Shown: positions 14,777 through 30,464 of the stretch, piece after piece
How positions within the stretch are numbered: position 1 is the stretch's first letter
Layout: each line of letters opens with the position of its first letter
DNA from: an uncultured Spirochaetota bacterium
Lineage (GTDB): Bacteria > Spirochaetota > Spirochaetia > SZUA-6 > Fen-1364
Length of the DNA stretch: 64,000 nt
Direction: 5' to 3'
Assembly: GCA_963745235.1 (NCBI GenBank)
Contig: CAVUXE010000009.1
Location: 128,001 to 192,000 of the forward strand
Position numbers and translations under genes: made by a program
The notes under the pieces: generated by a model
The model's database searches: none
Told to the model about the DNA's origin: nothing
Seen by the model: only the letters and a program-made list of their open reading frames with translations

Positions 14777-16090
14777 ATGGTGCTGTCGCGTCACAACATC
14801 ACGGGACGACTGAAGGACTCCGAGGGTTCCTTCATCATCAACCCTCTTTCCCGCAGCGCGGACCTTCTGAGCCCCGAGAGGGCCGGGGAGCTGGCCTCCG
14901 GCACTTTCTCCAATCCACGGGAGCTGGCCGAAAAGGGGTACCTGGTCGATCCTGACGAGGAAACCCGCAATTTCCGCGCTGCATACCTGGATTTCCTCGA
15001 CTCGCGGGATCATGGAGAGACCCAGCTTTTTTTCGTTCCCTGGTACTCCTGCAACTTCGCCTGCCCCTACTGCTACCAGGAGGGGTATGCCGCCCAATCA
15101 GGCGTGCTAGGGGATGAGGTGAGCGAGGCGTTTTTCAATTACGTCGGGAAGGAGTTCGCCGGCGGTCCGTCTATGTGACTCTCTTCGGAGGGGAGCCCCT
15201 CCTGCCGGGCGACCGGGCGCGGAAAAGCATCCAAAGGTTTCTCGACCTGGCAGCGGCGCAAAGCCTTTCGGTTGCCGTGGTAACCAACGGGTACATGCTT
15301 CGCGACTACCTGGAGACATTGCAGCGTGCGGCCATTCGTGAGGTCCAGGTGACCCTGGACGGGGTGGGCGGCCTGCATGACCGCAGGAGACCGCTGCGGG
15401 GCGGCTTGCCCACTTTCCAGCCGATTGTCGATGGGGTCGACGAGGCGCTGAAGCGCGGCATTCCCATCAACCTGCGGGTCGTGCTGGACCGGGAGAACAT
15501 CCACGGCCTGCCGGAGCTGGCGCGATTCGCCCGGGACCGGGGCTGGACCGGGAATCCTCTCTTCAAGACGCAGCTGGGGCGAAATTACGAGCTTCACACC
15601 TGCCAGGCGGATCCCGGCAGGCTCTACACCCGCGTGGAGCTCTACCAGGAGCTCTCCACCCTCGCTTCCCAGCATCCCGAAGTCATTCGAGCTCCACCGG
15701 CCGGCATTCTCCCTGGCAAAGTTCCTCTGGGAGAACGGGGAGCTGCCCGCGCCCTTGTTCGACTCCTGTCCCGGCTGCAAGACGGAATGGGCGTTCGACT
15801 ACGCCGGCCGCATCTATTCCTGCACTGCGACCGTCGGCAAGGTCGGAGACGAGCTGGGGACATTCTATCCGCAGGTGAGCAGGCGGGATGACCTGATCGA
15901 GGAGTGGCAGCAGCGGGACGTGACATCGATCCCGGAGTGCCGCACCTGCAATCTCCAACTGGCCTGCGGAGGCGGGTGCGCGGCAGTTGCCCGCAACCGG
16001 GAGGGCAGGCTGAACGCCCCTGACTGCCGTCCGGTGAAAGAGCTGCTGGAAATGGGGTTGTCACTCTATTTTGGAAAGGAATACGAATGA
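14777..16090 (+). CDS. Radical SAM/SPASM peptide maturase-type protein; frameshifts near 15170 and 15690
   Basis: CNFACPYC, TLFGGEPLL, VVTNGY, QVTLDG and SPASM cysteines (SCPGC...IYSC...CRTCNLQLACGGGC...PDC) spread over three consecutive ORF fragments. Confidence 0.9.
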
Positions 16091-17373
16091 TGGCTGCAAT
16101 GGTTCACGAGATCGCGGCGGACCAGTATGAAAAGGAAGTTCTGGCAGGAGGAAAGGTCGTCCTTGACTTCTACTCCACCGAGTGTCCGCCCTGCGAGGCG
16201 CTGGCGTCCAAGTACGAGGGGCTCGCCCGGATCTACGGGGAGGACGTGCGGTTCCTGAAGATTTTCCGACAGGGGAACAAGGCGCTCGCGGAAACACTTG
16301 GCGTGGCAAGCTCGCCCACTCTTTTGTTCTACGACGGGGGGAAGCGGCTCGAAGGTCAGCTGAGCGGCGGAATTCGACGCTCGCAGATCGCCGAGCGGCT
16401 GGACCAGATGCTCCCTCCCAGCCGCGTTCAGGAGCTGCGGGGAAAGGTCACCCCGGTCGTCACCGACTGTGACGCCCTCATCCTGGGCGGCGGTCCTGCC
16501 GGCCTGACCGCCGGGATCTACCTCGCACAGGCGCACCTGAAGACCGTGATCGTGGACACCGCGCTTCCCGGCGGATTCGTTGCAACCACACACCAGGTTT
16601 CCAACTACCCGGGGTTCCCTGACCCTTTGAACGGCTACATGCTTTCCCATTTCATGAGCGAACAGGCAAAGAAAGCGGGGGTTGTTTTCCGCGCAGCCGC
16701 GGATGTGGCCGCCCTGGACCTCGAAAGAAAAACAGTCCTCCTCGACGGCTATGAGACGGTCCGGGCACGCACGGTCATACTCGCCACGGGCTCCACCCCG
16801 CGGCCGCTGGGAATCCCCGGGGAAAAGGAGCACAGGGGCCGCGGCATTTCCTACTGCGCCACGTGTGACGCGAAGTTCTACGAGGGAAAAGACGTGGTGG
16901 TCATAGGCGGAGGCAATTCCGCCGTGGAGGAATCCCTTTTCATTGCGAGGTTCGCCCGCAAGCTCACCGTTGTCCACCAGTTTGCCCAGCTCCAGGCCAA
17001 CAAGGAGGCCCAGAAGAAGGCCTTCGACAACCCGCGGGTCGATTTTCTCTTCGAGCACGAGCCCCGGGCGTTCATCCGTCACGCGGACATGGACATGGAG
17101 GTGATCGTGGAGAACCTGCGGGATCATTCAATCAGAGGGCTTCGCTCGAACGGCGTGTTCGTCTTCGTGGGTTTCATACCGAATGTCCTCCCCTTCGACG
17201 GCGAGTGCAATCGGGATGCAGCGGGGTACATCGTCACTGACGAGAAGATGCGTGCCAGCCTTCCCGGCGTCTACGCCGTGGGGGACGTGCGGTCGAAACC
17301 TTACCGCCAGATTACCACGGCGACAGCCGATGGCACGATTGCCGCCATCGCCATTTCCCAGGAGTTGGCATAG
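16087..17373 (+). CDS. trxB: Thioredoxin domain fused to thioredoxin reductase
   Basis: N-terminal DFYSTECPPC, then GGGPAG, GISYCATCD, VIGGGNSA and YAVGDVR. Confidence 0.9.
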   Translation: MMAAMVHEIAADQYEKEVLAGGKVVLDFYSTECPPCEALASKYEGLARIYGEDVRFLKIFRQGNKALAETLGVASSPTLLFYDGGKRLEGQLSGGIRRSQIAERLDQMLPPSRVQELRGKVTPVVTDCDALILGGGPAGLTAGIYLAQAHLKTVIVDTALPGGFVATTHQVSNYPGFPDPLNGYMLSHFMSEQAKKAGVVFRAAADVAALDLERKTVLLDGYETVRARTVILATGSTPRPLGIPGEKEHRGRGISYCATCDAKFYEGKDVVVIGGGNSAVEESLFIARFARKLTVVHQFAQLQANKEAQKKAFDNPRVDFLFEHEPRAFIRHADMDMEVIVENLRDHSIRGLRSNGVFVFVGFIPNVLPFDGECNRDAAGYIVTDEKMRASLPGVYAVGDVRSKPYRQITTATADGTIAAIAISQELA

Positions 17374-17433: not shown

Positions 17434-17480
17434 GGGAATCCGGATTCCCGTTTTTTCTCATCACGGGAACCCGCGTTCCC
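17434..17480. promoter_or_regulatory. Tandem palindromes, candidate sigma54 enhancer (first copy may also act as a terminator)
   Basis: GGGAATCCGGATTCCC (17434-49, followed by GTTTTTT) and GGGAACCCGCGTTCCC (17465-80), 31 bp apart. Confidence 0.55.
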
Positions 17481-17570
17481 GCTTCCCGGCCGGCCGCTCG
17501 CGGCCTCGTGAAAAAGAGCGCGCCGGCCAGTCTTTTTCGCGCGTTTTTGCCGCTCTTGCGGAGCCTGTCC

Positions 17571-17586
17571 TGGCACAGATCGTGCA
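17571..17586 (+). promoter_or_regulatory. sigma54 (-24/-12) promoter
   Basis: TGGCAC-AGATC-GTGCA with correct GG-N10-GC spacing, upstream of the sugar ABC operon. Confidence 0.7.
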
Positions 17587-17597
17587 TACTGTCGGTA

Positions 17598-19128
17598 ATG
17601 CCCCCGTTGGTCTCAATGAAAAACATTACGAAGCACTTCGGTTCCGTGAAGGTCCTGGACCAGGTTGATTTCGTCATTTACCCGGGCGAGGTGCACATCC
17701 TGGCGGGGGAAAACGGGGCCGGCAAGAGCACCCTCATGAAGATCCTTGCGGGCGCATACGCCGACTACCAGGGCCGAATCGAGATGGAGGGACGGGAGAT
17801 CCGCCCCTCGAGCCCTCTGGACGCCAACCGGCATGGGATTGCGGCCATCCACCAGGAGCTTTCCCTCATCCCGTCCATGACCGTTGCAGACAATCTCTTT
17901 CTCGGCCACCCCATCACCCGAAGGGGCTTTGTTCAGGCGGGAGCCCACCGGCGCAGCGCGGAGGACGTCCTGGGCAGAGCGGGCGTCCGTGCCTCGGTCA
18001 CCTCGCTCGTGGAGGACCTGCCTATCTCGGTGCAGCAGCTCATCGAGATCACCAAGGCCATACGATTGAACGCGCGGGTCCTCATCATGGATGAGCCGTC
18101 AAGCGCCCTGAACGCGCACGATGTGGAAACCCTCTTCGCCCTCGTGCGGCAGCTGAAGGTCGAGAACCGCGGGATAATCTATATCACTCACCGACTTGAG
18201 GAGATCCACCGGCTTGCAGACCGGATCACTGTGCTTCGTGATGGACGGCTCGTGGGCAGCTCTGCGGCTTCCGATCTTCCCGAGAAGAAGCTCATCCGAA
18301 TGGATGGTTGGCCGGGAGATCGAGGAGCAGTTCCCCCGCCACACGCCGCAGATCTCCACCGAGGCGCTGCGGGTGGAAAATCTCTGCGTTCGCGCCGCCA
18401 GCCGCGCTCTGCGTCCCCTGGTGGACCGGGTCTCCCTTGGTGCTTCGCGCGGTGAGATCCTTGGAATCGGCGGGCTGCAGGGCTCCGGTGCCAGCGAGCT
18501 CTTTCTCGGTCTTTTCGGCGCGTTGCCAAAGAGGACGGAAGGGCGGGTGGCCATTGATGGAAAGCCGGTCCGAATCCGATCTCCCCGCGACGCCATTGGG
18601 AACGGCGTCGCCCTGCTGACCAACGACCGCAAGGCCACCGGGCTCATCGCCTCAATGTCGGTGACGGCAAACATGTGCGCGGCCAACATGAGGACCCTGG
18701 CGCCCCGCGGGTGGCGGCATCCGCGCCTGGAAGTCCGGGCGGCCACCGAGATGGGCAGGGCGCTGCAGCTTCGCGCCGCCTCGCTGGACATGGAGGTCGG
18801 GGAGCTCTCCGGCGGCAACCAGCAGAAGGTGGCCATCGGCAAGTGGCTCACGACGAACCCGCGGATCATGCTCCTTGACGAGCCGACCCGCGGAATAGAC
18901 GTGGGCGCCAAGCACGAGATCTACCAGCTCATGAACGACTGGACTGCTCACGGGATCTGCATTCTCCTGGTGACCTCGGAGATGCCCGAGCTTCTCGCCA
19001 TGAGTGACAGGATCGTTGTCATGCACCGGGGGGCCATTACAGCGGAGCTCTCCCGCCAGGAGGCCACCGCTGAGAAAGTCCTGGAGGCGGCCATGGGAAA
19101 GACGAACGGAGGCGGAAATGGTCGGTGA
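17598..19128 (+). CDS. Sugar ABC transporter ATP-binding protein (RbsA/CUT2 type); frameshift near 18300
   Basis: GENGAGKST, IMDEPSS, LSGGNQQKV and LDEPTRGIDVGAK. Confidence 0.92.
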
Positions 19129-20188
19129 GATACGGGAGCAGCTTCGCGGGGACCTGGGCCGCGGACCGAAGACCGGACAGAAGCGAAACGGTGTGGCCGG
19201 CGTTCTCCAGGCGATCGGCCATGCGTTGACCAGCTCCGCCGGCCGGGCATGCCTCGAGCTCCTGCTGGTGCTTCTCCTGGGCGTCATCTTCAACGCGGAC
19301 GGGGCATTCTTCAAAGAGGGGACGCATCGTGACACCCTGCGCCAGGCCTCGGTCTACGGGATCCTTGCCTGCGGGATGACGCTGGTCATCATCACCGGGG
19401 GGATCGACCTCTCCGTCGGGAGCGTCCTTGCAGTCTCCTCCGTCTCCTTTGCCCTCCTGTCCATGCACATGGACTGGACCTGGTGGCTGGCCATCCCGGC
19501 ATGCCTCGGGCTGGGCGCCCTCCTCGGTTCAGCCTCCGGCGCCCTGGTCTCCAACGCGAAGCTGCAGCCTTTCATCGCCACGCTGGCGCTGATGACCTTT
19601 GCCCGCGGTTTCGCCAAGTACATCACCGGCGGGCAGAAGATCTCCACCTACGTCACGCAGGGCGACAAGGTCATCATCAAGGAGCTCCCCCCGGTCTTCA
19701 AGTTCATCGACTCGCGCATCCTGGGAGGCAACCTTGCCATTGTGAGCGTGATCTTCTTCGTCTGTTTCATCGTCGCCTGGATCTTCCTTGCCCGCCACAA
19801 GTGGGGCAGGGAGCTCTACTCCATCGGCGGCAACGAGGAGGCGGCCAGGCTTTCTGGGGTCCCCGTGCGCATGGCAAAGTTCCTGGCATACACCTTCTCC
19901 GGGCTCATGTGCGGCGTGGCGGGCATTTGCCAGGCTGCACAGGAGACGCAGGGGGATCCCGAGACCGGGGCAGGCTACGAGCTGACTGCCATTGCCATGG
20001 TGGTCATCGGCGGGACGAGCCTCGCGGGAGGACGGGGGAGCATGGGGCTCACGCTCCTGGGCATCCTCACCATCGGATATTTGCAGAAGATTCTCAGCAT
20101 CAATGCGGTCCCGGAAGCCGGCCGGCTCATGATCACCGGGATCATCATTGTGCTCGCCGTTCTGACGCAGAAGCGGAGGACCAAGTAA
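19118..20188 (+). CDS. Sugar ABC transporter permease (RbsC type)
   Basis: GGIDLSVGS, PFIATLA, IGGNEEAARLSG and YELTAIAMVVIGGTSLAGG. Confidence 0.93.
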   Translation: MVGEIREQLRGDLGRGPKTGQKRNGVAGVLQAIGHALTSSAGRACLELLLVLLLGVIFNADGAFFKEGTHRDTLRQASVYGILACGMTLVIITGGIDLSVGSVLAVSSVSFALLSMHMDWTWWLAIPACLGLGALLGSASGALVSNAKLQPFIATLALMTFARGFAKYITGGQKISTYVTQGDKVIIKELPPVFKFIDSRILGGNLAIVSVIFFVCFIVAWIFLARHKWGRELYSIGGNEEAARLSGVPVRMAKFLAYTFSGLMCGVAGICQAAQETQGDPETGAGYELTAIAMVVIGGTSLAGGRGSMGLTLLGILTIGYLQKILSINAVPEAGRLMITGIIIVLAVLTQKRRTK

Positions 20189-20275
20189 CGGTGCCTCCGG
20201 GAGAGGAGGAAAGAGGCAAGCAGACCGGGCTTCGGAATGTTCTCGAAATCCAATCTCTTTGAAAGGAGATGATCC

Positions 20276-21205
20276 ATGAGATCCATCACAAAGTTTCTCC
20301 TCTGTGCGGCTCTCCTGTGCTCGCTGGCGGTATTACCCGTGTTTTCCGCCCCGAAATACATCATCGGGATGAGCCAGTGCAACCTCGGTGAGCCCTGGCG
20401 CGTGCAGATGAACGCGGACATCAAGGCAGAGGCCGCCAAGCACCCGGAGATCCAGGTGATCTACAAGGACGCGCAGAATGACGTGCTGCAGCAGCGCGCC
20501 CAGGTCGAGGAGTTCGTCGACGCCAAGATCAACCTGCTCATCATCAGCCCCAAGGAGGCGCAGCCGCTTGCGGAGCCCGTGTCCAAGGCAATGGCCGCGG
20601 GCATCCCCGTCATCGTGCTGGACCGCGATATCATTGGCCAGAACTACACCGAGTTCATCGGCGCGGACAATGTGAAGATCGGCCGCGCTGTCGGGAAGTG
20701 GCTCGTCCAGAACTACGGCGGAAAGTCGGCCAGGGTCGTTGAGATCATGGGACTGCAGACCTCGACTCCCGGCCAGGACCGGCACAACGGCTTCCTGGAG
20801 GCGATCAAGGGCTCCGACTTGAACGTGATCTTCCGCGCGGATGCAAAGTGGCTCGAGCCCGATGCCCGCCGGGAGATGGAGTCCGCCCTCGCCCGGTTCG
20901 ACAAGATCGACATCGTGTACGGGCACAACGATCCGTCAGCCCACGGGGCGTACCTCGCGGCGCAGGCGGCGGGCCGGGAGAAGGACATGGTGTTCGTCGG
21001 AATCGACTCCCTGCCCCAGGAAGGTGTCGCGTACGTGAAGCAGGGCATCCTGACGGCGACCTTCCAGTATCCCACCGGCGGTGACGTGGCCATCAAGCAG
21101 GCCCTCAAGATCTTCAACGGAGAAAAGGTCGTCAAGAGGATCGTCCTCGGCTCGCGGATGTTCACGAAAGACAACGTGGACGCCGGAGGACAGGCCATCG
21201 AATAG
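20276..21205 (+). CDS. Sugar ABC substrate-binding protein (RbsB/LacI fold)
   Basis: Signal peptide, GMSQCNLGEPWR, IPVIVLDR and YGHND; RBS AAGGAG. Confidence 0.93.
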   Translation: MRSITKFLLCAALLCSLAVLPVFSAPKYIIGMSQCNLGEPWRVQMNADIKAEAAKHPEIQVIYKDAQNDVLQQRAQVEEFVDAKINLLIISPKEAQPLAEPVSKAMAAGIPVIVLDRDIIGQNYTEFIGADNVKIGRAVGKWLVQNYGGKSARVVEIMGLQTSTPGQDRHNGFLEAIKGSDLNVIFRADAKWLEPDARREMESALARFDKIDIVYGHNDPSAHGAYLAAQAAGREKDMVFVGIDSLPQEGVAYVKQGILTATFQYPTGGDVAIKQALKIFNGEKVVKRIVLGSRMFTKDNVDAGGQAIE

Positions 21206-21226
21206 GCGCATCTCCTTCCTGCAGTG

Positions 21227-21259
21227 CCCCCGGACCGGCCTGTCCGGGGGACCATTTTT
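21227..21259 (+). terminator. Probable intrinsic terminator
   Basis: CCCCCGGAC-6-GTCCGGGGG followed by ACCATTTTT. Confidence 0.55.
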
Positions 21260-21286
21260 GATCCGTCCGTGCTATACTCGTGGTGA

Positions 21287-22642
21287 ATGTCGACCGGCGA
21301 CGCGAGGCCCGCCATGGATTACCGCATCCTGATTATCGATGACGAGAAAGAGCTCTGTGTCTCTCTTTCAGAAATCCTGACGGAGGAGGGTTACCACACC
21401 CTCTTCACCAGTGATCCGCTTGAAACGCCAGCCATCCTGGCGCGCACCCGCGTGGACCTCATCATCCTGGACATCCGTATGCCCGGCATCGGAGGCATCG
21501 ACCTTCTGCGGATGGTGCGCAAGACCAACCCGAACATCAAGGTCATCATCCTGACCGGCCATCCCAGCATCGAGAACGCCGTCCTTTCCATGAAGTACGG
21601 GGCCGCGAACTTCTATGAAAAGCCGCCCAACTTGAAGAAGCTCCTCAAGGAGATCCGCGAGTTTTCCGCGCGAGATGCCTCCGTCGGCGGACCCACCGGG
21701 GTCGAGTTGCAGTCCGCCCGCCGGGTGGTGACCAGAGATCCGCGGATGGTGAAAGTCCTCCAGTCAGCGGAGAAGGCGGCTGCCACAACGGCCCCCGTTC
21801 TCATAACAGGGGAGAGCGGCACGGGCAAGGAGCTCATTGCAAGCCTTGTGCACGAAGCGGGGCAGCGGGCAGACAGGCCCTTCATCAAGGTGAACTGCGC
21901 TGCCATCCCCGAGACGCTCCTGGAAAGCGAGCTCTTCGGCCACGAGAAGGGCGCCTTTACGAACGCCCTGGCCCAGAAGAAGGGCAAGTTCGAGCTTGCC
22001 CATGAGGGCACTATTTTTCTCGACGAGATCGGAGACATGAGCTCGAGCACGCAGGCCAAGATCCTGCGGGTCCTGCAGGAGCAGGAGTTCGAGCGGGTGG
22101 GAGGAACGCAGACGATCCGGGCCGACATCCGAATCATCGCGGCCACCAACAAGGACCTTCGACTCCTCATCCAGAAGGATGCCTTCCGGGAGGACCTCTA
22201 CTACCGGCTGTGCGTGATCTCCCTGCACATACCACCCCTGCGCGAGCGGCCTGAAGACGTCGAGCTGCTCATCGACCACTTCCTCAAGCTCTTCTCCACC
22301 CAGTATGCGCGGGAAATCCGCGGGCTGGACGCGCAAACCCGGGAGCTGCTCCTGGCCCACACGTGGCCCGGGAACGTGCGGGAGCTGAAGAACTGCATCG
22401 AAAGGGCCACGATCTTCTGTGAGGGGGAGCTGGTCACCCTCGAGGACCTTCCCTCCCAGTACATGGAGCTGGAGGGGACTCATCTGGGCCAGAAGCTCCA
22501 GAGCAGCTTCGAGCAGCTGAACCGCGCCATGATCATGGAGGCCCTGGAAAAGTCGAAGGGCAAGAAGTCGAAGGCCGCGGACATGCTGAACATCAACCGC
22601 CGGACGCTGTACAACCGCATGAGGAAGCTGGGCTTGAGCTGA
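21287..22642 (+). CDS. sigma54-dependent response regulator (NtrC/AtoC family)
   Basis: Receiver (IIDDE, LDIRMP), GESGTGKE, ELFGHEKGAFTNA, WPGNVREL and Fis HTH. The start may instead be ATG 21313. Confidence 0.93.
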   Translation: MSTGDARPAMDYRILIIDDEKELCVSLSEILTEEGYHTLFTSDPLETPAILARTRVDLIILDIRMPGIGGIDLLRMVRKTNPNIKVIILTGHPSIENAVLSMKYGAANFYEKPPNLKKLLKEIREFSARDASVGGPTGVELQSARRVVTRDPRMVKVLQSAEKAAATTAPVLITGESGTGKELIASLVHEAGQRADRPFIKVNCAAIPETLLESELFGHEKGAFTNALAQKKGKFELAHEGTIFLDEIGDMSSSTQAKILRVLQEQEFERVGGTQTIRADIRIIAATNKDLRLLIQKDAFREDLYYRLCVISLHIPPLRERPEDVELLIDHFLKLFSTQYAREIRGLDAQTRELLLAHTWPGNVRELKNCIERATIFCEGELVTLEDLPSQYMELEGTHLGQKLQSSFEQLNRAMIMEALEKSKGKKSKAADMLNINRRTLYNRMRKLGLS

Positions 22643-24459
22643 TGATGAAGCCGCGCGGGCCCCTCCTCGTTTCCATGAGGAACATCCATGTCAGCTATGA
22701 CAGCGTGCAGGCGCTGCGGGGGGTGGACTTCGACCTCGGCGCCGGGGAGATCCACGGTCTCCTGGGTGAGCACAGGGCCGGCAAGTCGACGCTGGTGAAG
22801 CTGCTCTCGGGAGCCGTGACGAAAGAGCGGGGGACGATCTGGCTCCGTGGAGAGGAGGTCCAGTCCTTCACGCCGAAATCCGCCATGCAGAACCGGATCG
22901 CTATCGTCTACCAGAACATGAACGTGATCCCGAGCATCAGCGCCATCGAGAACATCTTCACCGGGCAGCGGGTGACCCGACGGCTGGGCTTCCTGGACAC
23001 GAAGAGCATGGAGAGCACCGCGGTGAAGCTCTTCCAGGCCCTCCAGGTGGACATCAACCCGCACGCGCGGCTGGAGGACCTGACGGAGGCGGAGCAGCTC
23101 ATGGTGGAGATCGCCAAGGCGCTTTCCATCGAACCGGAGCTGCTGATCTTCGACGAGATATCGAGCAAGCTGACCCCCCGGGAGATGGAAACGATCTATC
23201 GGCTTCTCTTCGAGTTCAAGAGCCGTGGCAGGAGCGTGATCTACATCTCCCACAACATGGATGAGATCTTCCAGCTCGCCGACAGGGTCACCATCCTGAA
23301 AAACGGGCTCCGCCAGGGGACGGAGGAGATCCAGGACATCGACAAGCTCAAGCTGATCAAGATGACCTATTCCTACGTCCTGAGCAGGGAGGAGCTGGAG
23401 CAGGACAACCGGGAGCTTTTCCTGCTGAAGAAGTACAACGAGAACATCATCCGTAACCTTCCCATCGGGGTGATCATCCTCGACCAGAAAAAAAGGATCT
23501 CCATCGTCAACTTCGCGGCCGTGAAGATCCTTGCCCTGAAGGACGAGGTGCTGATGGACCAGCCGGTGGCGACGCTCCTTTCGCGCTGCGGGATGGAAAA
23601 ACGCGCGGAGATCGAGGAGAGAATCACCGCCAAGGAGGAGCACGTCTGGGAGGAGCTGCACTGCGCGGAAAAAGGGCTGGTCCGCCTGCGTGTCTTCCCG
23701 TTCCAGGACGACGAGTACAAGCACCTGGGCACCATCCTCGTCATCGAGGACATCTCGCGGGACCGCTATTTCCAGGACTACCTGCTGCGCTCCGAGAAGA
23801 TCGCCTCCATTGCGGAGCTTGCCACCGGGGTGGCGCACGAGATCTCCAATCCCCTCAGCGTCGTGCTCAACTACGTGGATCTTCTCAAGCGCCACCACGC
23901 GAGCGGCGCAGACGCGGAAAGACTCTCCAAGATCGAACGCGAGCTGAACCGAATCGGGGAGATCATCGGCAGCCTGCTTTCCTTCTCCAAGGTGCGCAAG
24001 ATCCCCATGGAACCGCTCAGCGTCGCCCGGATCATTTCCGACGTCGTTCTCCTCGTGGACCACAAGATCCACGAAAAAGCGGTGAACCTTCGCCTGCCAG
24101 CCGTGCCGGACGATCTGCTGGTCTACGGGGAGGAGAACAGCCTGAAGCAGGTCTTCGTGAATCTCCTCATCAACAGCGCGGAGGCCGTCCTCGAGCACGG
24201 GACCGTGGAGGTAGCCGTCAAGCGCATCGAGGCTGACAACTGCGTGGAGGTCTCGATCATCGACGACGGCTGCGGCATTCCTTCCGAGATCATCGACAGG
24301 ATTTTCGATCCTTTTTTCAGCACCAAGGCGGGAAAGAAGAACACCGGCCTCGGACTCTCCATCTGCCAGCACATCGTGGAATCCCACGAGGGGGTGATCA
24401 TGTGCTCGTCCGAGGAGAACACCGTGATGAGCGTGCGGCTTCCGATCTACCGCCCGTAG
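22642..24459 (+). CDS. Hybrid ABC-ATPase domain - PAS - histidine kinase
   Basis: GEHRAGKST, IVYQ, LIFDE and ISH, then PAS-like NIIRNLPIGVIILD, H-box VAHEISNPL, QVFVNLLINS, DDGCGI, FDPFFST and GLGLSI. No TM segment. Confidence 0.9.
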   Translation: MMKPRGPLLVSMRNIHVSYDSVQALRGVDFDLGAGEIHGLLGEHRAGKSTLVKLLSGAVTKERGTIWLRGEEVQSFTPKSAMQNRIAIVYQNMNVIPSISAIENIFTGQRVTRRLGFLDTKSMESTAVKLFQALQVDINPHARLEDLTEAEQLMVEIAKALSIEPELLIFDEISSKLTPREMETIYRLLFEFKSRGRSVIYISHNMDEIFQLADRVTILKNGLRQGTEEIQDIDKLKLIKMTYSYVLSREELEQDNRELFLLKKYNENIIRNLPIGVIILDQKKRISIVNFAAVKILALKDEVLMDQPVATLLSRCGMEKRAEIEERITAKEEHVWEELHCAEKGLVRLRVFPFQDDEYKHLGTILVIEDISRDRYFQDYLLRSEKIASIAELATGVAHEISNPLSVVLNYVDLLKRHHASGADAERLSKIERELNRIGEIIGSLLSFSKVRKIPMEPLSVARIISDVVLLVDHKIHEKAVNLRLPAVPDDLLVYGEENSLKQVFVNLLINSAEAVLEHGTVEVAVKRIEADNCVEVSIIDDGCGIPSEIIDRIFDPFFSTKAGKKNTGLGLSICQHIVESHEGVIMCSSEENTVMSVRLPIYRP

Positions 24460-25266
24460 CTATCGCACGGTGACCTTGTATCCCCTCACCTCGGTGCGGC
24501 CCGTGCCGGTGATCACCTCGTTTCCCAGCTCCAGCCCGGTCACGTAGAGATTGTCCCCCAGCAGCTTTCGCGACTGCAGGAAAGCGGCAAAAGCTCCAAC
24601 GTCGAGCGGTCCTTTCAGGACGGGTGTTCTGGCGAGGAAGGCCACGTATGTCCACTTCTGGGGGTTCTTGCCGGAAGCGTCGCCATGAGATTCGCGGACG
24701 AAGACATCAAAGGTGGTGCCGTCAAGCGTGAACACGTCTGTCCACACCCCTGCCGGTGTCATTCCCTTGTTGTCGATCCAGATCATGACCTCGTGGGTTA
24801 TGGCAGTCGGCCCCGCGGGCAAAGAGGACACGGTCCAGAACTCGAAGGCCATGTTGCACATTCCCGTGGCCTCGAACGAGATGTCGTAATCCACCGTGAT
24901 TCCGCGTGAGCCTATGAGGAGCGGAAGGTTGTCCGCCCGGCCCTGACGCTTTGCGTCCCAGGGGCTGTCCCCATACATCACCTCCGGATACGCAACGACG
25001 CCGTCGCTGGAGGGCCACCGCCACTGCCACCCGAAAGCGATCTCCCCGTTCGCGGTGCTCGTGAAGATTGCCTGCTCGTGCGGCCCATGCGCGGCCGCCC
25101 TGTTCCACGTGTTGTTGCTGAGCAGGTAGCCGCCGCCCAGGGACAGGGAAGCAAAGTCCCTGCTGAGACGGACGTCGCCGGTCTGCCGTTCATGCATCTG
25201 GGAGAGGCACCCCGTGAGCACAATGGCGCACACCAACCCCGCCACACAGGCTCGCAGCCGCGGCAT
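24460..25266 (-). CDS. Glycoside hydrolase family 12 lipoprotein (endoglucanase/xyloglucanase-like)
   Basis: LTG-C lipobox, NNTWN, AYPEVMYG, AFEFW, HEVMIW and LELGNEV. Confidence 0.85.
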   Translation of the reverse strand: MPRLRACVAGLVCAIVLTGCLSQMHERQTGDVRLSRDFASLSLGGGYLLSNNTWNRAAAHGPHEQAIFTSTANGEIAFGWQWRWPSSDGVVAYPEVMYGDSPWDAKRQGRADNLPLLIGSRGITVDYDISFEATGMCNMAFEFWTVSSLPAGPTAITHEVMIWIDNKGMTPAGVWTDVFTLDGTTFDVFVRESHGDASGKNPQKWTYVAFLARTPVLKGPLDVGAFAAFLQSRKLLGDNLYVTGLELGNEVITGTGRTEVRGYKVTVR

Positions 25267-26097: not shown

Positions 26098-26481
26098 CTA
26101 TTTCGTGTCTGCTTCTTCTTCCAGGTAGAACCGCATGATCGTGCTCCCGATCACGATCCGGTCCCCGTACTGCAGGCGGCTCTTCTCCGAGAGCTTTCGC
26201 GAGTTGAGGAAGGTGGAGTTCGTCGAGTTCAGGTCTTCGATGAAGTAGTCTCCCGCCCCGTCCACTGACACGGCGCAGTGCCGCCGGCTCAGGAGCGGGT
26301 CATCTATGACGAACTCACAGTCACCCTGGCGCCCAAGGACGCTGTGAGGCTGGTCGATCACGAACGTCGTTCCGAATCCCATGCGGGAAAGGATGACCAG
26401 GAGAGCTCTCTTTCCCAGCGCCGCCGAATACTTGAACTTCTGCGGGTCTTTCCTGATCTGTGTATTCTCTCCGCCGTTCAC
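26098..26481 (-). CDS. FHA domain protein
   Basis: LGR...LSRRHC...EDLNSTNSTFLN...GDRIVIG. The start codon is uncertain. Confidence 0.85.
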   Translation of the reverse strand: MNGGENTQIRKDPQKFKYSAALGKRALLVILSRMGFGTTFVIDQPHSVLGRQGDCEFVIDDPLLSRRHCAVSVDGAGDYFIEDLNSTNSTFLNSRKLSEKSRLQYGDRIVIGSTIMRFYLEEEADTK

Positions 26482-26594
26482 AACGGGATCATCCCGGCGC
26501 CGGCAGCGGCTGTCAAGGTGCGCTTGCCTCCCCGCCGAACGGCGGTAGACTGTCGCCTCGGCGCGTGCTTCAATCCCGGCCAAGGAAACCACGC

Positions 26595-27431
26595 ATGGCA
26601 ATACTCCTGGCCGGTCTCTCCGCGCTGATGTACGGCGCGGCTGACTTCTGCGGGGGGATGGCGACGCGCAGGGCGCCGCTTCCCGCCGTGCTCGCCTCTT
26701 CCCAGGCGGTGGGCCTCGTGGTCGCCGCGGTTGCATCCCTCGCTTTCGGTTTTCACCTGACTGCTCCGTCAGATCTCGCCTGGGGCGCCCTGGCCGGCGT
26801 ATCGGGAGCCGCCGGTATTGCCGCGCTCTACTACGCCCTGGCCACGACAGTGGTTGCCGTGGCATCCCCCCTGGCCGCCGTTACGGGTGCCGTCATACCG
26901 GTCCTCCTGGGAGTTGCCGCGGGGGAAAGGCCAGGCTCCCTGGCGTGGGTGGGAATCGGGATGGGAGTGTGCGCCATTGCTCTGCTCACCGCGGGACCTT
27001 CAAAATCTCCCAGGGAGCGAGCAGTCCGTCGCGCGGCGCTCCTTGGCGTGCTGGCTGGTCTCGGATTCGGACTGTTCTTCTTTTCGATTTCCAGGACCTC
27101 TCACGCTTCGGGCCTGTGGCCGCTGGTGGCGGCCAGGATCGCAACCGTTTCGCTCGTGGTTCTTTTTGCCGTTGCGGCTCGCAGGCCTCTGCGCCTGTCG
27201 AAGGCGTCGCTTCCCATGGTTCTCCTCTCGGGAGGACTGGACATGGGAGCAAACATCGCGTTCCTTCTTGCGAGCAGGAGCGGGATGCTGAGCATCTCTG
27301 CCGCTGTCGCCGCCCTTTACCCGGGGCCCACGGTCATCCTCGCCTGGATCCTGCTGAAAGAGCGCGTGACGGCGCCCCGCGTGGTGGGGCTGGCCCTTGC
27401 CCTTGCCGGTGTGGCGCTCATTTCCGCGTGA
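26595..27431 (+). CDS. DMT/EamA family transporter
   Basis: YGAADFCGG, about 10 TM segments and ALYPGPTVILAWILLKERV. Confidence 0.88.
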   Translation: MAILLAGLSALMYGAADFCGGMATRRAPLPAVLASSQAVGLVVAAVASLAFGFHLTAPSDLAWGALAGVSGAAGIAALYYALATTVVAVASPLAAVTGAVIPVLLGVAAGERPGSLAWVGIGMGVCAIALLTAGPSKSPRERAVRRAALLGVLAGLGFGLFFFSISRTSHASGLWPLVAARIATVSLVVLFAVAARRPLRLSKASLPMVLLSGGLDMGANIAFLLASRSGMLSISAAVAALYPGPTVILAWILLKERVTAPRVVGLALALAGVALISA

Positions 27432-27766: not shown

Positions 27767-28765
27767 ATGAGGGCAGGCCTTGCGGTCTGTCTCCTGACGC
27801 TCGTGGCGGCTTGGGCATTCGGGGCCCCCTCCGACGTGCCTGTCACACCGACTCCCGCTCACGACCCTGCCATCATCAGGGAAGGAGACTGGTACTACCT
27901 GTTCACCACGGGTCCGGGGATCACCATCCAGCGCTCGCGCGACCTGGTATCCTGGTCCGTGGTCGGCTCGGTGTTCCGCACCCCTCCCGACTGGACGTAC
28001 AGGGACGTGCCACGGTTCGACGGCACTGTCTGGGCACCCGACATCTCGTTCGTCCACGGCCGCTACCTCCTCTACTACGCGGTGTCCTCGTTCGGGAGCA
28101 ACCAGTCCTGCATCGGGCTTGCCACCAATGCCACCCTTGACCCCCACAGCCGCCAGTATCGCTGGGAGGACAAGGGAAAAGTCATCGGGTCCCTGCCATG
28201 GAAGGACGATTGGAACGCGATCGATCCAAACCTCGCCGGGGATGATGAAAACCACTTTTTTCTGGTCTTCGGCTCCTTCTGGGGCGGCATCAAGATGGCG
28301 GCAATCGACCCTGACACCGGAAAGCTGCTGAAAGACCCGCCCGACCTCATCTCGCTCGCGCGGCGCCCGTCCGTGGCCGCGGATCCCATCGAGGCGCCTT
28401 TCATTTTCCGCCACGCTGATATGTACTACCTGTTCGTTTCTTTTGACTACTGCTGCCGCGGCATCAGGAGCGACTACAAGATAGCCGTTGGACGATCCTC
28501 GCGGCTCACGGGGCCCTACGTGGACAGGGACGGCAAACCGATGACCGAGGGCGGCGGCACAATAGTCCTGCAGAGCTACGACGACGTGCACGGCCCCGGC
28601 CACAACGCGGCCATTCATGACGGGGACACGGACTGGCTCGTCCACCACATGTATGACGGGACCCGGGGCGGAATGGCGGTGCTGCAGGTTCGCCCCCTCG
28701 CCTGGAGCGATGACGGATGGCCTGTTGCCGGCCCGCCGCTTTCGGCGCCGCGGGCTTTTCAGTAG
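27767..28765 (+). CDS. GH43 endo-1,5-alpha-L-arabinanase
   Basis: AHDPAII, WAPDI, NAIDP, FGSFWGGI, IEAPFI, SFDYCCRG and GPGHN. Confidence 0.92.
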   Translation: MRAGLAVCLLTLVAAWAFGAPSDVPVTPTPAHDPAIIREGDWYYLFTTGPGITIQRSRDLVSWSVVGSVFRTPPDWTYRDVPRFDGTVWAPDISFVHGRYLLYYAVSSFGSNQSCIGLATNATLDPHSRQYRWEDKGKVIGSLPWKDDWNAIDPNLAGDDENHFFLVFGSFWGGIKMAAIDPDTGKLLKDPPDLISLARRPSVAADPIEAPFIFRHADMYYLFVSFDYCCRGIRSDYKIAVGRSSRLTGPYVDRDGKPMTEGGGTIVLQSYDDVHGPGHNAAIHDGDTDWLVHHMYDGTRGGMAVLQVRPLAWSDDGWPVAGPPLSAPRAFQ

Positions 28766-28924: not shown

Positions 28925-30464
28925 GTGAGCCGCCAGATCCTTTCGATGCGGAAAATCGACAAGCGCTTCACGGGTGTGCATGCGCTTCGCCAGGTGGATT
29001 TCGACCTCGACGAAGGCGGAGATCCATGCCCTGGTCGGGGAGAACGGCGCGGGCAAGTCCACGCTCATGAAGGTTCTCATCGGCATCAATTCCAAGGACT
29101 CCGGTGAGATCCACTACCTGGGCCACCCGTTCAACCCGCGGGACCCCAAGCATGCCCTGGAGATGGGGATCGGGATAATCCATCAGGAATTGAACATGAT
29201 GGACCATCTCACGGTGGCCCAGAACATCTTCATTGGCAGAGAATCCACCCGGCTGAACGGCATCTTCCTGGACAAGCGGGAGCAGAACCGCATGACGGAA
29301 GAGCTGTTCAAACGGCTCAAGATGAACATCGACCCCAACGAGCCCCTGGCGCGGCTGACCGTCGGGAAGCAGCAGATGGTGGAGATCGCCAAGGCGGTGT
29401 CGCACCGCCTTCGAATCCTGATCCTGGACGAGCCAACCGCGGCGCTGACGGACGCCGAAATCGACGAGCTGTTCACCATCATGCGGGACCTGGCCAGCAG
29501 AGGCGTCGGCATGATCCACATTTCCCACCGCCTTGACGAGATCCACCGCATCGCGGATCGGGTCACGGTGCTGCGCGACGGTGAGCGAGTCGACACCAGG
29601 AAAACCTCGGAGGTGACGAAGCAGCAGATCATCAACATGATGGTCGGCCGCGTCATTTACGAGCAGCCGAAGACCCGCAGCAGCGTTCCCGCCGGAGCGC
29701 CGGTCGTGCTTCGGGTGAACCGGCTGAACGCCGGGAGGCTCGTGAAGAACGTCAGCTTCGAGCTGCGCCAGGGAGAGATCCTCGGCGTCGCAGGGCTGAT
29801 GGGGTCCGGCAGGACGGAGACGGCCCGGGCAATCTTCGGCGCGGACGAGGTGCAGAGCGGCACAATCGAGGTCCGCGGGCGGCGTGTCTCCATCCAGTCG
29901 CCGGAGGATGCCGTGGCGTACGGCATCGGGTACCTGTCGGAAGACCGCAAGCGCTTCGGGCTGGCGGTCAACCTGAGCGTGCGGGACAACCTGGCCATGG
30001 CCACCTATGACCGCTTCCAGCGGGGCCTGTTCATCCACGCGACGAAGGTCCGGCGGGTCACGGAGGATTACGTCCAGAAGCTGAATATCAGGACGCCGTC
30101 CCTGGAGCAGCTGCTGCGAAACCTTTCGGGCGGCAACCAGCAGAAGGTCGTCATCGCAAAGTGGCTGATCCGCAACTGCGACATCCTGATCTTCGACGAG
30201 CCGACCCGCGGAATCGACGTCGGGGCAAAGAGCGAAATCTACACGCTGATGAACGAGCTGACTCGTGAGGGAAAGTCGATCATCATGATCTCTTCGGAGC
30301 TTCCCGAGATCCTTCGCATGAGCGACCGCATCCTCGTGATGTGCGAGGGAAGGCTCACCGGGGAGCTTCCCATCGAAGAGGCGAGCCAGGAGGCAATCAT
30401 GGAGTACGCAACCATGGGGCGCCAGGAAGTCCTCAGCGAGGAGCTGATGCATGGCGTGACATGA
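28925..30464 (+). CDS. Sugar ABC ATP-binding protein (RbsA type); frameshift near 29012
   Basis: KRFTGVHAL in one frame, then GENGAGKST, LDEPTAAL and LSGGNQQKV in another. Confidence 0.92.

Follow-up and report, generated by a model that had tools for sequence, protein, structure and literature searches.

A histidine kinase with an ATP-binding cassette domain at its N-terminus, and its sugar-importer cassette, in an uncultured Spirochaetota bacterium

Genomic context and architecture of the kinase

The window analyzed here is a 64,000-nucleotide stretch from an uncultured Spirochaetota bacterium (GenBank assembly GCA_963745235.1, contig CAVUXE010000009.1, positions 128,001 to 192,000; positions below count from the first letter of the window). 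Our subject within it is a histidine kinase that carries, as its N-terminal domain, an ATP-binding cassette (ABC) nucleotide-binding domain (NBD) of the type found in CUT2 sugar importers. The kinase gene (22642–24459, +) is a single uninterrupted frame of 605 residues. Directly before it lies the gene of an NtrC-family response regulator (21287–22642, +), which consists of a receiver, a sigma-54 AAA+ activator domain, and a Fis-type helix-turn-helix (Response_reg 9.6e-25, Sigma54_activat 8.4e-72, HTH_8 3.2e-14). The two genes share a single base, at the stop codon of the regulator and the start of the kinase, and the kinase is translationally coupled to this NtrC-type sigma-54 activator. Further upstream on the same strand are the three genes of a CUT2 importer: a two-NBD ATPase of the RbsA/AraG type (17598–19128, +; two frames here, with ABC_tran in both open reading frames), a permease (19118–20188, +; BPD_transp_2, Pfam 1.1e-47), and a periplasmic sugar-binding protein with a signal-peptide-like N-terminus (20276–21205, +; Peripla_BP_4, Pfam 8.8e-47). 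Between the binding-protein and regulator genes, a consensus scan alone picked out a terminator-like GC-rich hairpin followed by a T run (21227–21250, +; 9-pair stem with 8 G-C pairs), and the two-component genes may depend on low-level read-through or have a transcript of their own.

The open reading frame, Pfam, NCBIfam, and Kyte-Doolittle results all agree with the architecture proposed in the initial annotation, namely one clean frame with an NBD, a linker, a PAS domain, and a kinase core, and no transmembrane helix. Residues 1–235 (22642–23346, +) form the CUT2 NBD1-type ABC domain (ABC_tran at residues 25–173, 2.9e-22), residues 236–268 (23347–23445, +) the linker, and residues 269–375 (23446–23766, +) the PAS domain (Pfam match at 267–371, 2.9e-07). 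Residues 376–605 and the stop codon (23767–24459, +) make up the kinase core, with HisKA at residues 391–451 (6.6e-12), the phospho-acceptor H399, and HATPase_c at residues 497–602 (3e-23); all four Pfam matches are above the cut-off. The NBD motifs that had been named are also present (Walker A GEHRAGKST at 42–50, Q91, Walker B LLIFDE at 167–172, and H204), to which we add a degenerate ABC signature (LTEAEQ). Kyte-Doolittle means over 19 residues do not rise above 1.53, and on this basis the kinase is predicted to be a soluble protein.

In NCBIfam, residues 8–257 match the first half alone of the two-NBD CUT2 ATPases (AraG 5.5e-60, YtfR, XylG, AlsA, RbsA 2e-54, and MglA), and residues 258–603 match AtoS (4.2e-74). 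An RbsA/AraG equivalog is defined by two tandem NBDs in ~500 residues and a score above the cut-off; the kinase covers profile positions 8–239 of 504 and scores 203 bits against a cut-off of 689. For the AtoS equivalog (NF008468) it scores 250 bits against 646, over profile positions 262–609 alone. By sequence, the kinase is assigned to the HisKA kinases and to the ABC NBD superfamily, although its signature motif fails, and it is placed outside both equivalogs, whose cut-offs and defining features it does not reach.

The kinase core has its expected invariant residues. In alignment A1, H399 within AHEISNPL is invariant in 25 of 25 sequences, as are the residues of the N, G1, F, and G2 boxes of the GHKL domain (N507, N511, D541, G543, G545, F555, G569, and G571). 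Mean pairwise identity in the same alignment is 0.74 for the linker, 0.62 for the dimerization and phosphotransfer domain (DHp), 0.60 for the NBD, 0.53 for the catalytic domain (CA), and 0.43 for the PAS domain, which makes the linker the best-conserved segment of the kinase and the PAS its most variable domain. The first part of the linker is homologous to the linker between NBD1 and NBD2 of CUT2 ATPases, with KLIKM in the kinase and KLIRM in the ATPases. An AlphaFold monomer model gave a predicted local distance difference test score (pLDDT) of mostly 85–93 in the NBD and below 50 for residues 241–269, the best-conserved stretch, and the model suggests that these residues may be ordered only within a dimer or complex. 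A Foldseek search with the full kinase model returned only generic PAS-kinase and ABC-NBD matches, the best being PAS/LOV histidine kinases (for example 4gcz and 8a6x), and no solved NBD-kinase.

The splitting of the gene by raw reads, which the initial annotation had considered as a danger to its reading, was not seen: across 17500–24500, the contigs of four public runs list no indel inside the kinase gene, with patchy cover in which no single listed piece spans the full gene. The peaks of contig depth at 21712–22179 stem from contigs of other organisms with the same conserved sigma-54 AAA+ core, and are uninformative on this gene. The runs that contain this stretch are labeled as soil, peat, and wetland metagenomes.

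Size, spread, and origin of the family

We surveyed the combination of ABC_tran, PAS, HisKA, and HATPase_c, as had been proposed, and found it in most of the best-matching clusters. PF00005, PF00512, and PF02518 occur together in ~605 residues in 114 of the 120 best clusters at 90% identity, and the other six are short or partial. In an exhaustive search of 50%-identity representatives, of which the best 150 were considered, 121 are proteins of 585–646 residues with one continuous match from the NBD to the catalytic domain, at 27–51% identity. Thirteen of the remaining representatives are ~500-residue CUT2 ATPases, and the rest are fragments or have odd lengths. Family members are held in databases as “AtoS”, “ATP-binding protein”, or “ATP-binding cassette domain-containing protein”. 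The named carriers are mostly Spirochaetota, and also include Candidatus Moduliflexus, Vecturithrix, and metagenome-assembled genomes (MAGs) of Desulfobacteraceae, Gynuella, and Elulimicrobium. Within the phylum the distribution is patchy, with the fused kinase in at least 11 of 301 sampled genomes at E <= 1e-80, a lower bound given that four candidates were scored per genome.

Some members exceed the common length, but proved uninformative. P0128 (851 residues) is longer by ~240 residues in its middle part, where two HisKA stretches precede the catalytic domain and may reflect an internal duplication. P0015 (937 residues) has an epimerase part at its C-terminus and is regarded as a run-on gene call. 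When fused forms of at least 1060 residues (full ATPase-kinase or permease-NBD-kinase) were searched for, the two matches were unrelated PAS kinases without PF00005, which is weak evidence of absence.

In a FastTree analysis of 141 NBDs, the 77 kinase NBDs lie on one side of a branch with Shimodaira-Hasegawa-like support of 97, and the 61 NBD1s of the cognate transporters and three single-NBD ATPases lie on the other. Because the kinase NBDs group in this way, the tree fits a fusion that arose once rather than by repeated capture of a local ATPase. The input domain of this architecture is derived from the NBD1 of CUT2 ATPases.

Conservation of the kinase NBD

We compared the 77 kinase NBDs with the 61 cognate CUT2 NBD1s. 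The Walker A lysine (K48) is found in 76 of 76 kinase NBDs and 61 of 61 NBD1s, Walker B D171 and E172 (the catalytic glutamate) in 77 of 77 kinase NBDs, and the Q-loop glutamine (Q91) in 73 of 77; the kinase studied here carries the Walker A GxxxxGK[ST], Q-loop glutamine, and Walker B hhhhDE of an ABC NBD. The segment after the Q-loop is conserved at least as well as in real NBD1s: P97 is kept in 68 of 77 kinases against 48 of 61 NBD1s, N104 in 74 of 77 kinases, and G108 in 72 of 77, and ENIF is also kept.

Other positions set the kinases apart from the transporter domains. Walker A reads GE-HR-AGKST in the kinases (H in 70 of 77 and R in 67 of 77) instead of GE-NG-AGKST (N and G in 61 of 61), DEP(T/S) of NBD1 has become DE(I/V)S with the loss of P173, and position 176, in the D-loop, is occupied by K or R. 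The H-loop histidine, which is needed for hydrolysis, is present here as H204, but it is kept in only 43 of 77 kinases and lost in 34, whereas all 61 NBD1s have it. The LSGGQ signature is missing in the family, which has L-[ST]-x-x-x-Q without the Gly-Gly, and this motif is already weak in the cognate CUT2 NBD1s.

Despite these changes the domain is well kept. The kinase NBD is ~38% identical to the CUT2 ATPases of the same genome, and in most orthologous cassettes it is conserved at least as well as the working NBD1, with identities of 92% against 82% in locus L001, 71% against 63% in L021, and 53% against 57% in L072. Its mean pairwise identity is also close to that of the DHp (0.60 and 0.62), which places the NBD under strong selection. 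Because the ATP-binding residues are kept and the features needed for hydrolysis are relaxed, the pattern fits a strongly selected, ATP-binding domain whose hydrolysis machinery is no longer essential, and which would act as a switch rather than as a motor.

Co-inheritance with CUT2 transporters

The synteny set comprises 75 loci (L001–L072 and the own-genome loci L089–L091) with 76 fused genes; L073–L078, which match one half of the query only, and L079–L088, which are short duplicates of own-genome places, were left out. In 71 of 71 informative loci, the gene immediately before the kinase encodes a regulator of this kind, and the other five kinase genes start at most 55 nucleotides from a contig end. 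For 55 of the 76 genes, a two-NBD CUT2 ATPase is found at a distance of at most 4.1 kb, and variant CUT2 transporters accompany four more. Three of these variants, in a Desulfobacteraceae MAG (L024), a Gynuella MAG (L032), and a Spirochaetota MAG (L071), consist of Peripla_BP_4, BPD_transp_2, and a single-NBD ATPase of 257–276 residues; in the fourth (L030), a binding protein and permeases go with an ATPase in pieces. Sugar-catabolic genes then follow in two of them, a lyxose isomerase and an FGGY kinase in L024 and GatZ/KbaZ-like and PfkB genes in L071. For fourteen other genes, the contig breaks off within ~4.6 kb on one side or both, and near such ends there is a binding-protein match in L015 and a permease match in L029, between the kinase pair and the end. 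The initial annotation had made its reading depend on homologues being linked to CUT2 transporters, and this linkage was found for the 55 genes and the four variants, with three informative loci lacking it.

Gene order varies, with the transporter upstream, downstream, or divergent. The genome itself has four paralogues, each with its own regulator and its own CUT2 transporter. In the scaffold of Bacterium UASB270 (L011, 7685–18356), two convergent kinase-regulator pairs flank one CUT2 transporter, and the two kinases are 31% identical in the NBD.

Permease clusters were built at 50% identity, and their labels were placed on a 45-row tree of kinase NBDs. The labels require 10 changes on this tree, against a possible minimum of 9 and a mean of 26.1 when shuffled, and none of 200 shuffles was as low. 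Clade c0 spans Spirochaetota and Moduliflexota, which means that whole cassettes have moved as units. Since kin share labels, this demonstrates co-inheritance of the cassette rather than contact. Kinase, regulator, and transporter have thus diversified together, and the kinase family probably controls the adjoining transporters. Pairwise identities of the kinase NBD and the regulator are correlated (Spearman 0.73).

The sigma-54 promoter and the output side

A sigma-54 −24/−12 element, TGGCACAGATCGTGCAT (17571–17587, +), with one mismatch to TGGCAC-N5-TTGCW, ends ~11 nucleotides before the conserved ATG of the ATPase at 17598. The transporter mRNA may be nearly leaderless here; in L004 and L005 there are ~40 extra bases between the −12 element and the ATG. 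Farther upstream, the pattern GGGAA-N6-TTCCC occurs as two inverted repeats in tandem (17434–17480, +), GGGAATCCGGATTCCC (17434–17449) and GGGAACCCGCGTTCCC (17465–17480), which are presumed to be enhancer sites bound by the NtrC-type regulator. In six of six orthologous upstream regions aligned, TGGCA and TGCAT of the promoter are invariant, and both half-site pairs of the repeats are invariant or nearly so, while the flanks diverge and the sequence between the conserved elements diverges and even changes in length. The pattern looks like the footprint expected of an enhancer-dependent promoter.

A sigma-54 pattern with up to two mismatches is not enriched across the window (20 found and 27.2 expected). 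Alone, the site at 17571 would not be significant, and it counts because it is conserved in orthologues and recurs in relatives. A stricter scan of the 75 loci (1.15 Mb), with GG and GC fixed and at most one mismatch, gave 60 sigma-54-like sites, of which 34 lie at most 400 nucleotides upstream of a cassette gene and outside coding matches. These 34 precede the binding protein (18), the ATPase (13), the permease (1), an ATPase fragment (1), and the regulator (1), so that 33 of them precede a transporter gene. About 12 further sites lie ~1.2 kb upstream of the ATPase, in a divergent intergenic region. In L045 and L048, the two examined, a Peripla_BP_1 gene missed by tblastn starts ~35 nucleotides downstream of such a site, and in L024 and L032 a site precedes the binding-protein gene.

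The regulator has the sigma-54 contact loop GAFTNA. Among 67 partner regulators this loop is GAFTDA in 36, the canonical GAFTGA in 14, and GAFTNA in 7, with the GAFT core kept. In addition, rpoN is present in the genome, which together with the regulator domains and the −24/−12 promoter at the target completes the set of features of an NtrC-family two-component system. We regard the output side as settled as far as sequence patterns can tell: the partner is by its domains a sigma-54 activator, and a conserved, predicted sigma-54 promoter stands before the transporter operon.

The transporter ATPase and other features of the region

In this assembly the ATPase gene is divided into two overlapping open reading frames by one extra base at 18298, and the frames join at KLIR|(W)MVGREIEEQFP (~18298–18304). 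The extra base is absent from the contigs of all three public runs that cover it (X1, X2, and X8, from three studies; X3 is without cover at 18298), and the five closest relatives (L001–L005) have NBD1 and NBD2 in one frame. For both of these reasons the split is an assembly error or a private mutation and does not mark a half-ATPase. Two real half-ATPase genes, which would pair with the kinase NBD, are likewise ruled out by the covering runs, which lack the base.

The MAG is 85.7% complete with 5.9% contamination. Its fourth NBD-kinase paralogue (G000:C75:69471-71244; L091, L082/L083) is in two frames with a break near residue 213, and several of its CUT2 ATPases have open frames of only ~300–340 residues; frequent indel errors are suggested for this genome.

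The permease has a conserved cytoplasmic loop (GR...GGN.E..RLSG), in which G230, R231, G237, N239, R244, and G247 are invariant in a 24-row alignment that goes down to 32% identity. Because the loop is invariant over this range, it provides a generic docking site on the permease.

Upstream of the transporter is an open reading frame of 428 residues (16087–17373, +) with an N-terminal thioredoxin domain and a pyridine-nucleotide disulphide oxidoreductase (thioredoxin-reductase-like) domain. Downstream of the kinase are a GH12 glycoside hydrolase (24460–25266, −), an FHA-domain protein (26098–26865, −) overlapped on the opposite strand by an EamA-family open reading frame (26460–27431, +), a GH43 hydrolase (27767–28765, +), and a second, intact two-NBD CUT2 ATPase (28974–30464, +), before which no sigma-54-like site was found. 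CUT2-type ATPase matches occur at ~40 places in the genome, in which sugar ABC importers are markedly expanded.

Discussion

The kinase NBD is derived, by its sequence, from the class of transporter that the cassette encodes. Each cassette keeps a complete ATPase of its own. The reading we prefer is that of a transporter-coupled two-component system in which the signaling NBD of the kinase docks on the permease, and we give it a probability of roughly 0.4. A more specific proposal, which we offer tentatively and would sooner bet against than for, is that the importer serves as a transmembrane receptor, with the kinase dimer giving the permease two hydrolysis-impaired NBDs in place of the ATPase to form a signaling-only ABC complex. 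In the docking reading that we prefer, the two NBDs of the kinase dimer would bind ATP and hydrolyze it poorly, and would compete with the transporter ATPase for the coupling loops of the permease dimer, where they would sit head-to-tail. Arrival of the sugar-loaded binding protein on the outer side would make the permease drive closure of the NBDs. The closure motion could then pass through the conserved linker to the PAS dimer and the DHp helices, and lead to autophosphorylation at H399. The phosphorylated regulator would act at the GGGAA-N6-TTCCC sites and promote sigma-54 transcription of the ATPase, permease, and binding protein, so that a cytoplasmic kinase would have the importer as its transmembrane receptor. 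In MalK and MetN, the chain to the C-terminal regulatory domain leaves the NBD dimer on the two-fold axis and away from the membrane, which is the exit geometry that a parallel kinase dimer needs.

A prediction of the complex of two permeases (alignment A2) with kinase residues 1–262 (alignment A1) was classed as weak support, with a score of 0.60 (runs of 0.60, 0.61, and 0.59) against 0.00 for the best of three controls. At least 87% of contacts are common to the runs, and the partner pLDDT is at least 76. A sequence search of the Protein Data Bank found no CUT2 permease, and its best NBD matches were P-glycoprotein-type NBDs. The mark used is reached by 116 of 157 solved complexes and by 2 of 215 mismatched pairs, counts that hold roughly here given the custom alignments; at scores of 0.60 or less, 18 of the 157 solved complexes passed, and both of the passing mismatches lie in this range. 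In the initial annotation, the NBD was proposed to dock on the neighboring permease in place of, or beside, the normal ATPase. The docking part has gained this weak support, and “in place of” cannot refer to a missing ATPase: every cassette keeps a full ATPase, and the apparent split at this locus is a one-base assembly error.

Several observations weigh against docking on the permease. Unless there were good prior grounds to expect the complex, a score in this band is wrong in more cases than it is right, and a ~38%-identical cousin of the true partner could be placed in the model by family likeness, because NBD-permease complexes in general are solved. The full ATPase of each cassette means that the kinase must compete for the permease, and with ~40 CUT2 ATPase loci and four such kinases in the genome, a generic docking site raises a problem of cross-talk. 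At the residue level, E92 beside the Q-loop glutamine is kept in 12 of 77 kinases against 61 of 61 NBD1s, and residues 92–95 are variable; in MalK, the stretch after the Q-loop glutamine touches the coupling helix. Two further positions have changed in the kinase NBDs, V101 to A and L107 to a small residue. No transporter was found at L012, L022, and L031 within the 9 + 9, 9 + 9, and 3.5 + 9 kb examined. Pairwise identity in the kinase NBD is weakly correlated with that in the permease (Spearman 0.15), with most permease comparisons saturated near 30%, and we judged this correlation uninformative and used the cluster-level label test instead. Lastly, co-inheritance of the cassette is equally expected from a purely regulatory link.

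The last point leads to the main alternative, which we consider unlikely, though well short of negligible, and in which the NBD is a free nucleotide sensor. ATP, or the balance of ATP and ADP, would drive NBD dimerization within the kinase dimer and gate the kinase, the PAS domain would confer sugar specificity by binding the imported sugar or a metabolite, and the link to the transporter would be purely regulatory, through activation of the operon by the regulator. Regulation alone would explain the synteny, the sigma-54 promoters, and the co-diversification, as well as the three loci without a neighboring transporter and the complete ATPase in every cassette, and it fits the genomic data as a whole no less well than docking does. 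The residues tell a similar story, with invariant ATP-binding positions, relaxed hydrolysis positions, no constraint just after the Q-loop glutamine, and a PAS domain that is the most variable (0.43), as for a ligand-specific module. However, a free sensor leaves unexplained why the input is always the NBD1 of the very transporter class that is regulated, and why the post-Q-loop segment (P97, N104, ENIF, and G108) is under tighter constraint than in working NBD1s. Two NBD1-type domains with two degenerate signatures would also make a poor ATP sandwich, the presence of four paralogues, one per transporter, has no explanation in energy sensing, and the complex prediction, at 0.60 against 0.00, is weak support on the same side.

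A second alternative, which we consider improbable, is that the kinase NBD pairs with an NBD of the transporter ATPase, whose intact LSGGQ signature would complete the Walker A site of the kinase, so that the kinase would read cycling or flux in a way similar to PstB-PhoU-PhoR. A good Walker A with a degenerate signature does call for an NBD2-type partner, as in CUT2 NBD1s, and the single-NBD ATPases of L024, L032, and L071 could form heterodimers. Published excerpts on the phosphate system describe PhoU as bridging PstSCAB and PhoR and acting on the PhoR PAS domain (PMC13577022, PMC9239213). Against this, 55 of 76 cassettes have NBD1 and NBD2 in a single chain, leaving no free NBD2 face, and the D-loop and P-loop of the kinases differ systematically from those of NBD1 (SKLT against SALx, HR against NG). 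Finally, an artifact of assembly or gene calling, in which half an ATPase gene and a PAS kinase gene were read as one, is refuted for practical purposes, for although indel errors exist in this assembly (in the ATPase at 18298 and in the paralogue in two frames on contig C75), the same ~600-residue frame recurs in the 114 of 120 and 121 of 150 best clusters from independent assemblies and several phyla, the linker is the best-conserved part of the kinase, and no indel is listed in the gene across four runs.

Comparison with known systems helps to place the kinase. With the CUT2 ATPases (RbsA, AraG, XylG, MglA, and YtfR) it shares the NBD1 and the inter-NBD linker, which align with residues 8–257, as well as the Walker A lysine, Q-loop glutamine, Walker B Asp-Glu, and a weak NBD1 signature, but a PAS domain and kinase core stand where those proteins have their second NBD. 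With AtoS-AtoC and the NtrC family it shares the PAS-HisKA-HATPase_c part and a sigma-54 activator partner with a receiver, AAA+ domain, and Fis-type helix-turn-helix. In contrast to AtoS, whose N-terminus is membrane-anchored, it has an ABC NBD and no transmembrane helix, and the presumed target is a sugar transporter rather than the ato operon. An ABC NBD that controls a regulator is known from MalK, which directly controls the transcription regulator MalT, but MalK functions as a subunit of its transporter and has no kinase fused to it. The kinase KdpD carries a P-loop nucleotide-binding domain at its cytoplasmic N-terminus, which differs from the present one in not being an ABC NBD.

By analogy, the kinase system would work most like the transporter-coupled systems (Pst-PhoU-PhoR, Bce, DctA-DcuS, and CbrA/CrbS). 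In PstSCAB-PhoU-PhoR, the state of an ABC importer reaches the PAS domain of PhoR via PhoU, according to the portions of the literature consulted (PMC13577022, PMC9239213, PMC5775613, PMC4423584). The likeness lies in an importer state relayed to a kinase PAS domain that controls the transporter's own regulon; the difference is that the relay there is non-covalent through PhoU, with a membrane-anchored PhoR and an OmpR-type regulator, while here the NBD is fused to the PAS domain. Excerpts on BceAB-BceS describe a kinase without an extracellular sensor that relies on an ABC transporter for substrate detection (PMC9169098, PMC7438565, PMC3023708). Substrate detection through an ABC transporter is the shared element, but BceS is an intramembrane-sensing kinase that contacts BceB in the membrane, the transporter is an FtsX-type resistance pump, and there is no fused NBD. 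Bce-type systems are defined by an intramembrane-sensing kinase with two transmembrane helices and a BceB permease with an FtsX domain, whereas the present kinase has no transmembrane helix and its permease is BPD_transp_2. A transporter module is also joined to a kinase in CbrA/CrbS, covalently (SLC5), and in DctA-DcuS, physically, as described in parts of published reports (PMC7096432, PMC5715377, PMC4280142). There the module is the membrane permease of a secondary transporter, while here it is the soluble energizing domain of a primary ABC transporter joined to a soluble kinase.

Conclusions

The initial annotation knew of no characterized kinase covalently joined to an ABC NBD, and our full-text literature search, with most subscription journals outside its scope, found none and no description of an NBD-kinase fusion; the family thus appears unstudied, although an earlier mention elsewhere is possible. 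What is new is an ABC NBD covalently joined, as input domain, to a two-component kinase; the family is large and uncharacterized, and domain databases list it under generic names. The family is also diverse, with 121 of the 150 best 50%-identity clusters and carriers in Spirochaetota, Moduliflexota, Desulfobacteraceae, and a gammaproteobacterium, and the labels “AtoS” and “ATP-binding protein” are corrected for the members that bear them.

Known transporter-coupled sensing is either non-covalent (Bce, Pst-PhoU-PhoR, and DctA-DcuS) or uses a permease-kinase fusion (CbrA), and in these systems the coupling step is hard to isolate. The coupling element here is an ABC NBD in one chain with a PAS domain and a kinase, and the output is well defined as a predicted sigma-54 promoter on the adjoining sugar importer. 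The question of how a signaling protein reads out the conformational cycle of an ABC importer is thereby made testable with soluble proteins, Walker mutants, and proteoliposomes, and the answer would also show how NBD closure becomes a kinase signal. If the NBD is only an ATP sensor, it would still be a new cytoplasmic input domain for histidine kinases. If the importer does act as the receptor, the family would represent a novel route by which kinases in the cytoplasm sense ligands outside the cell.

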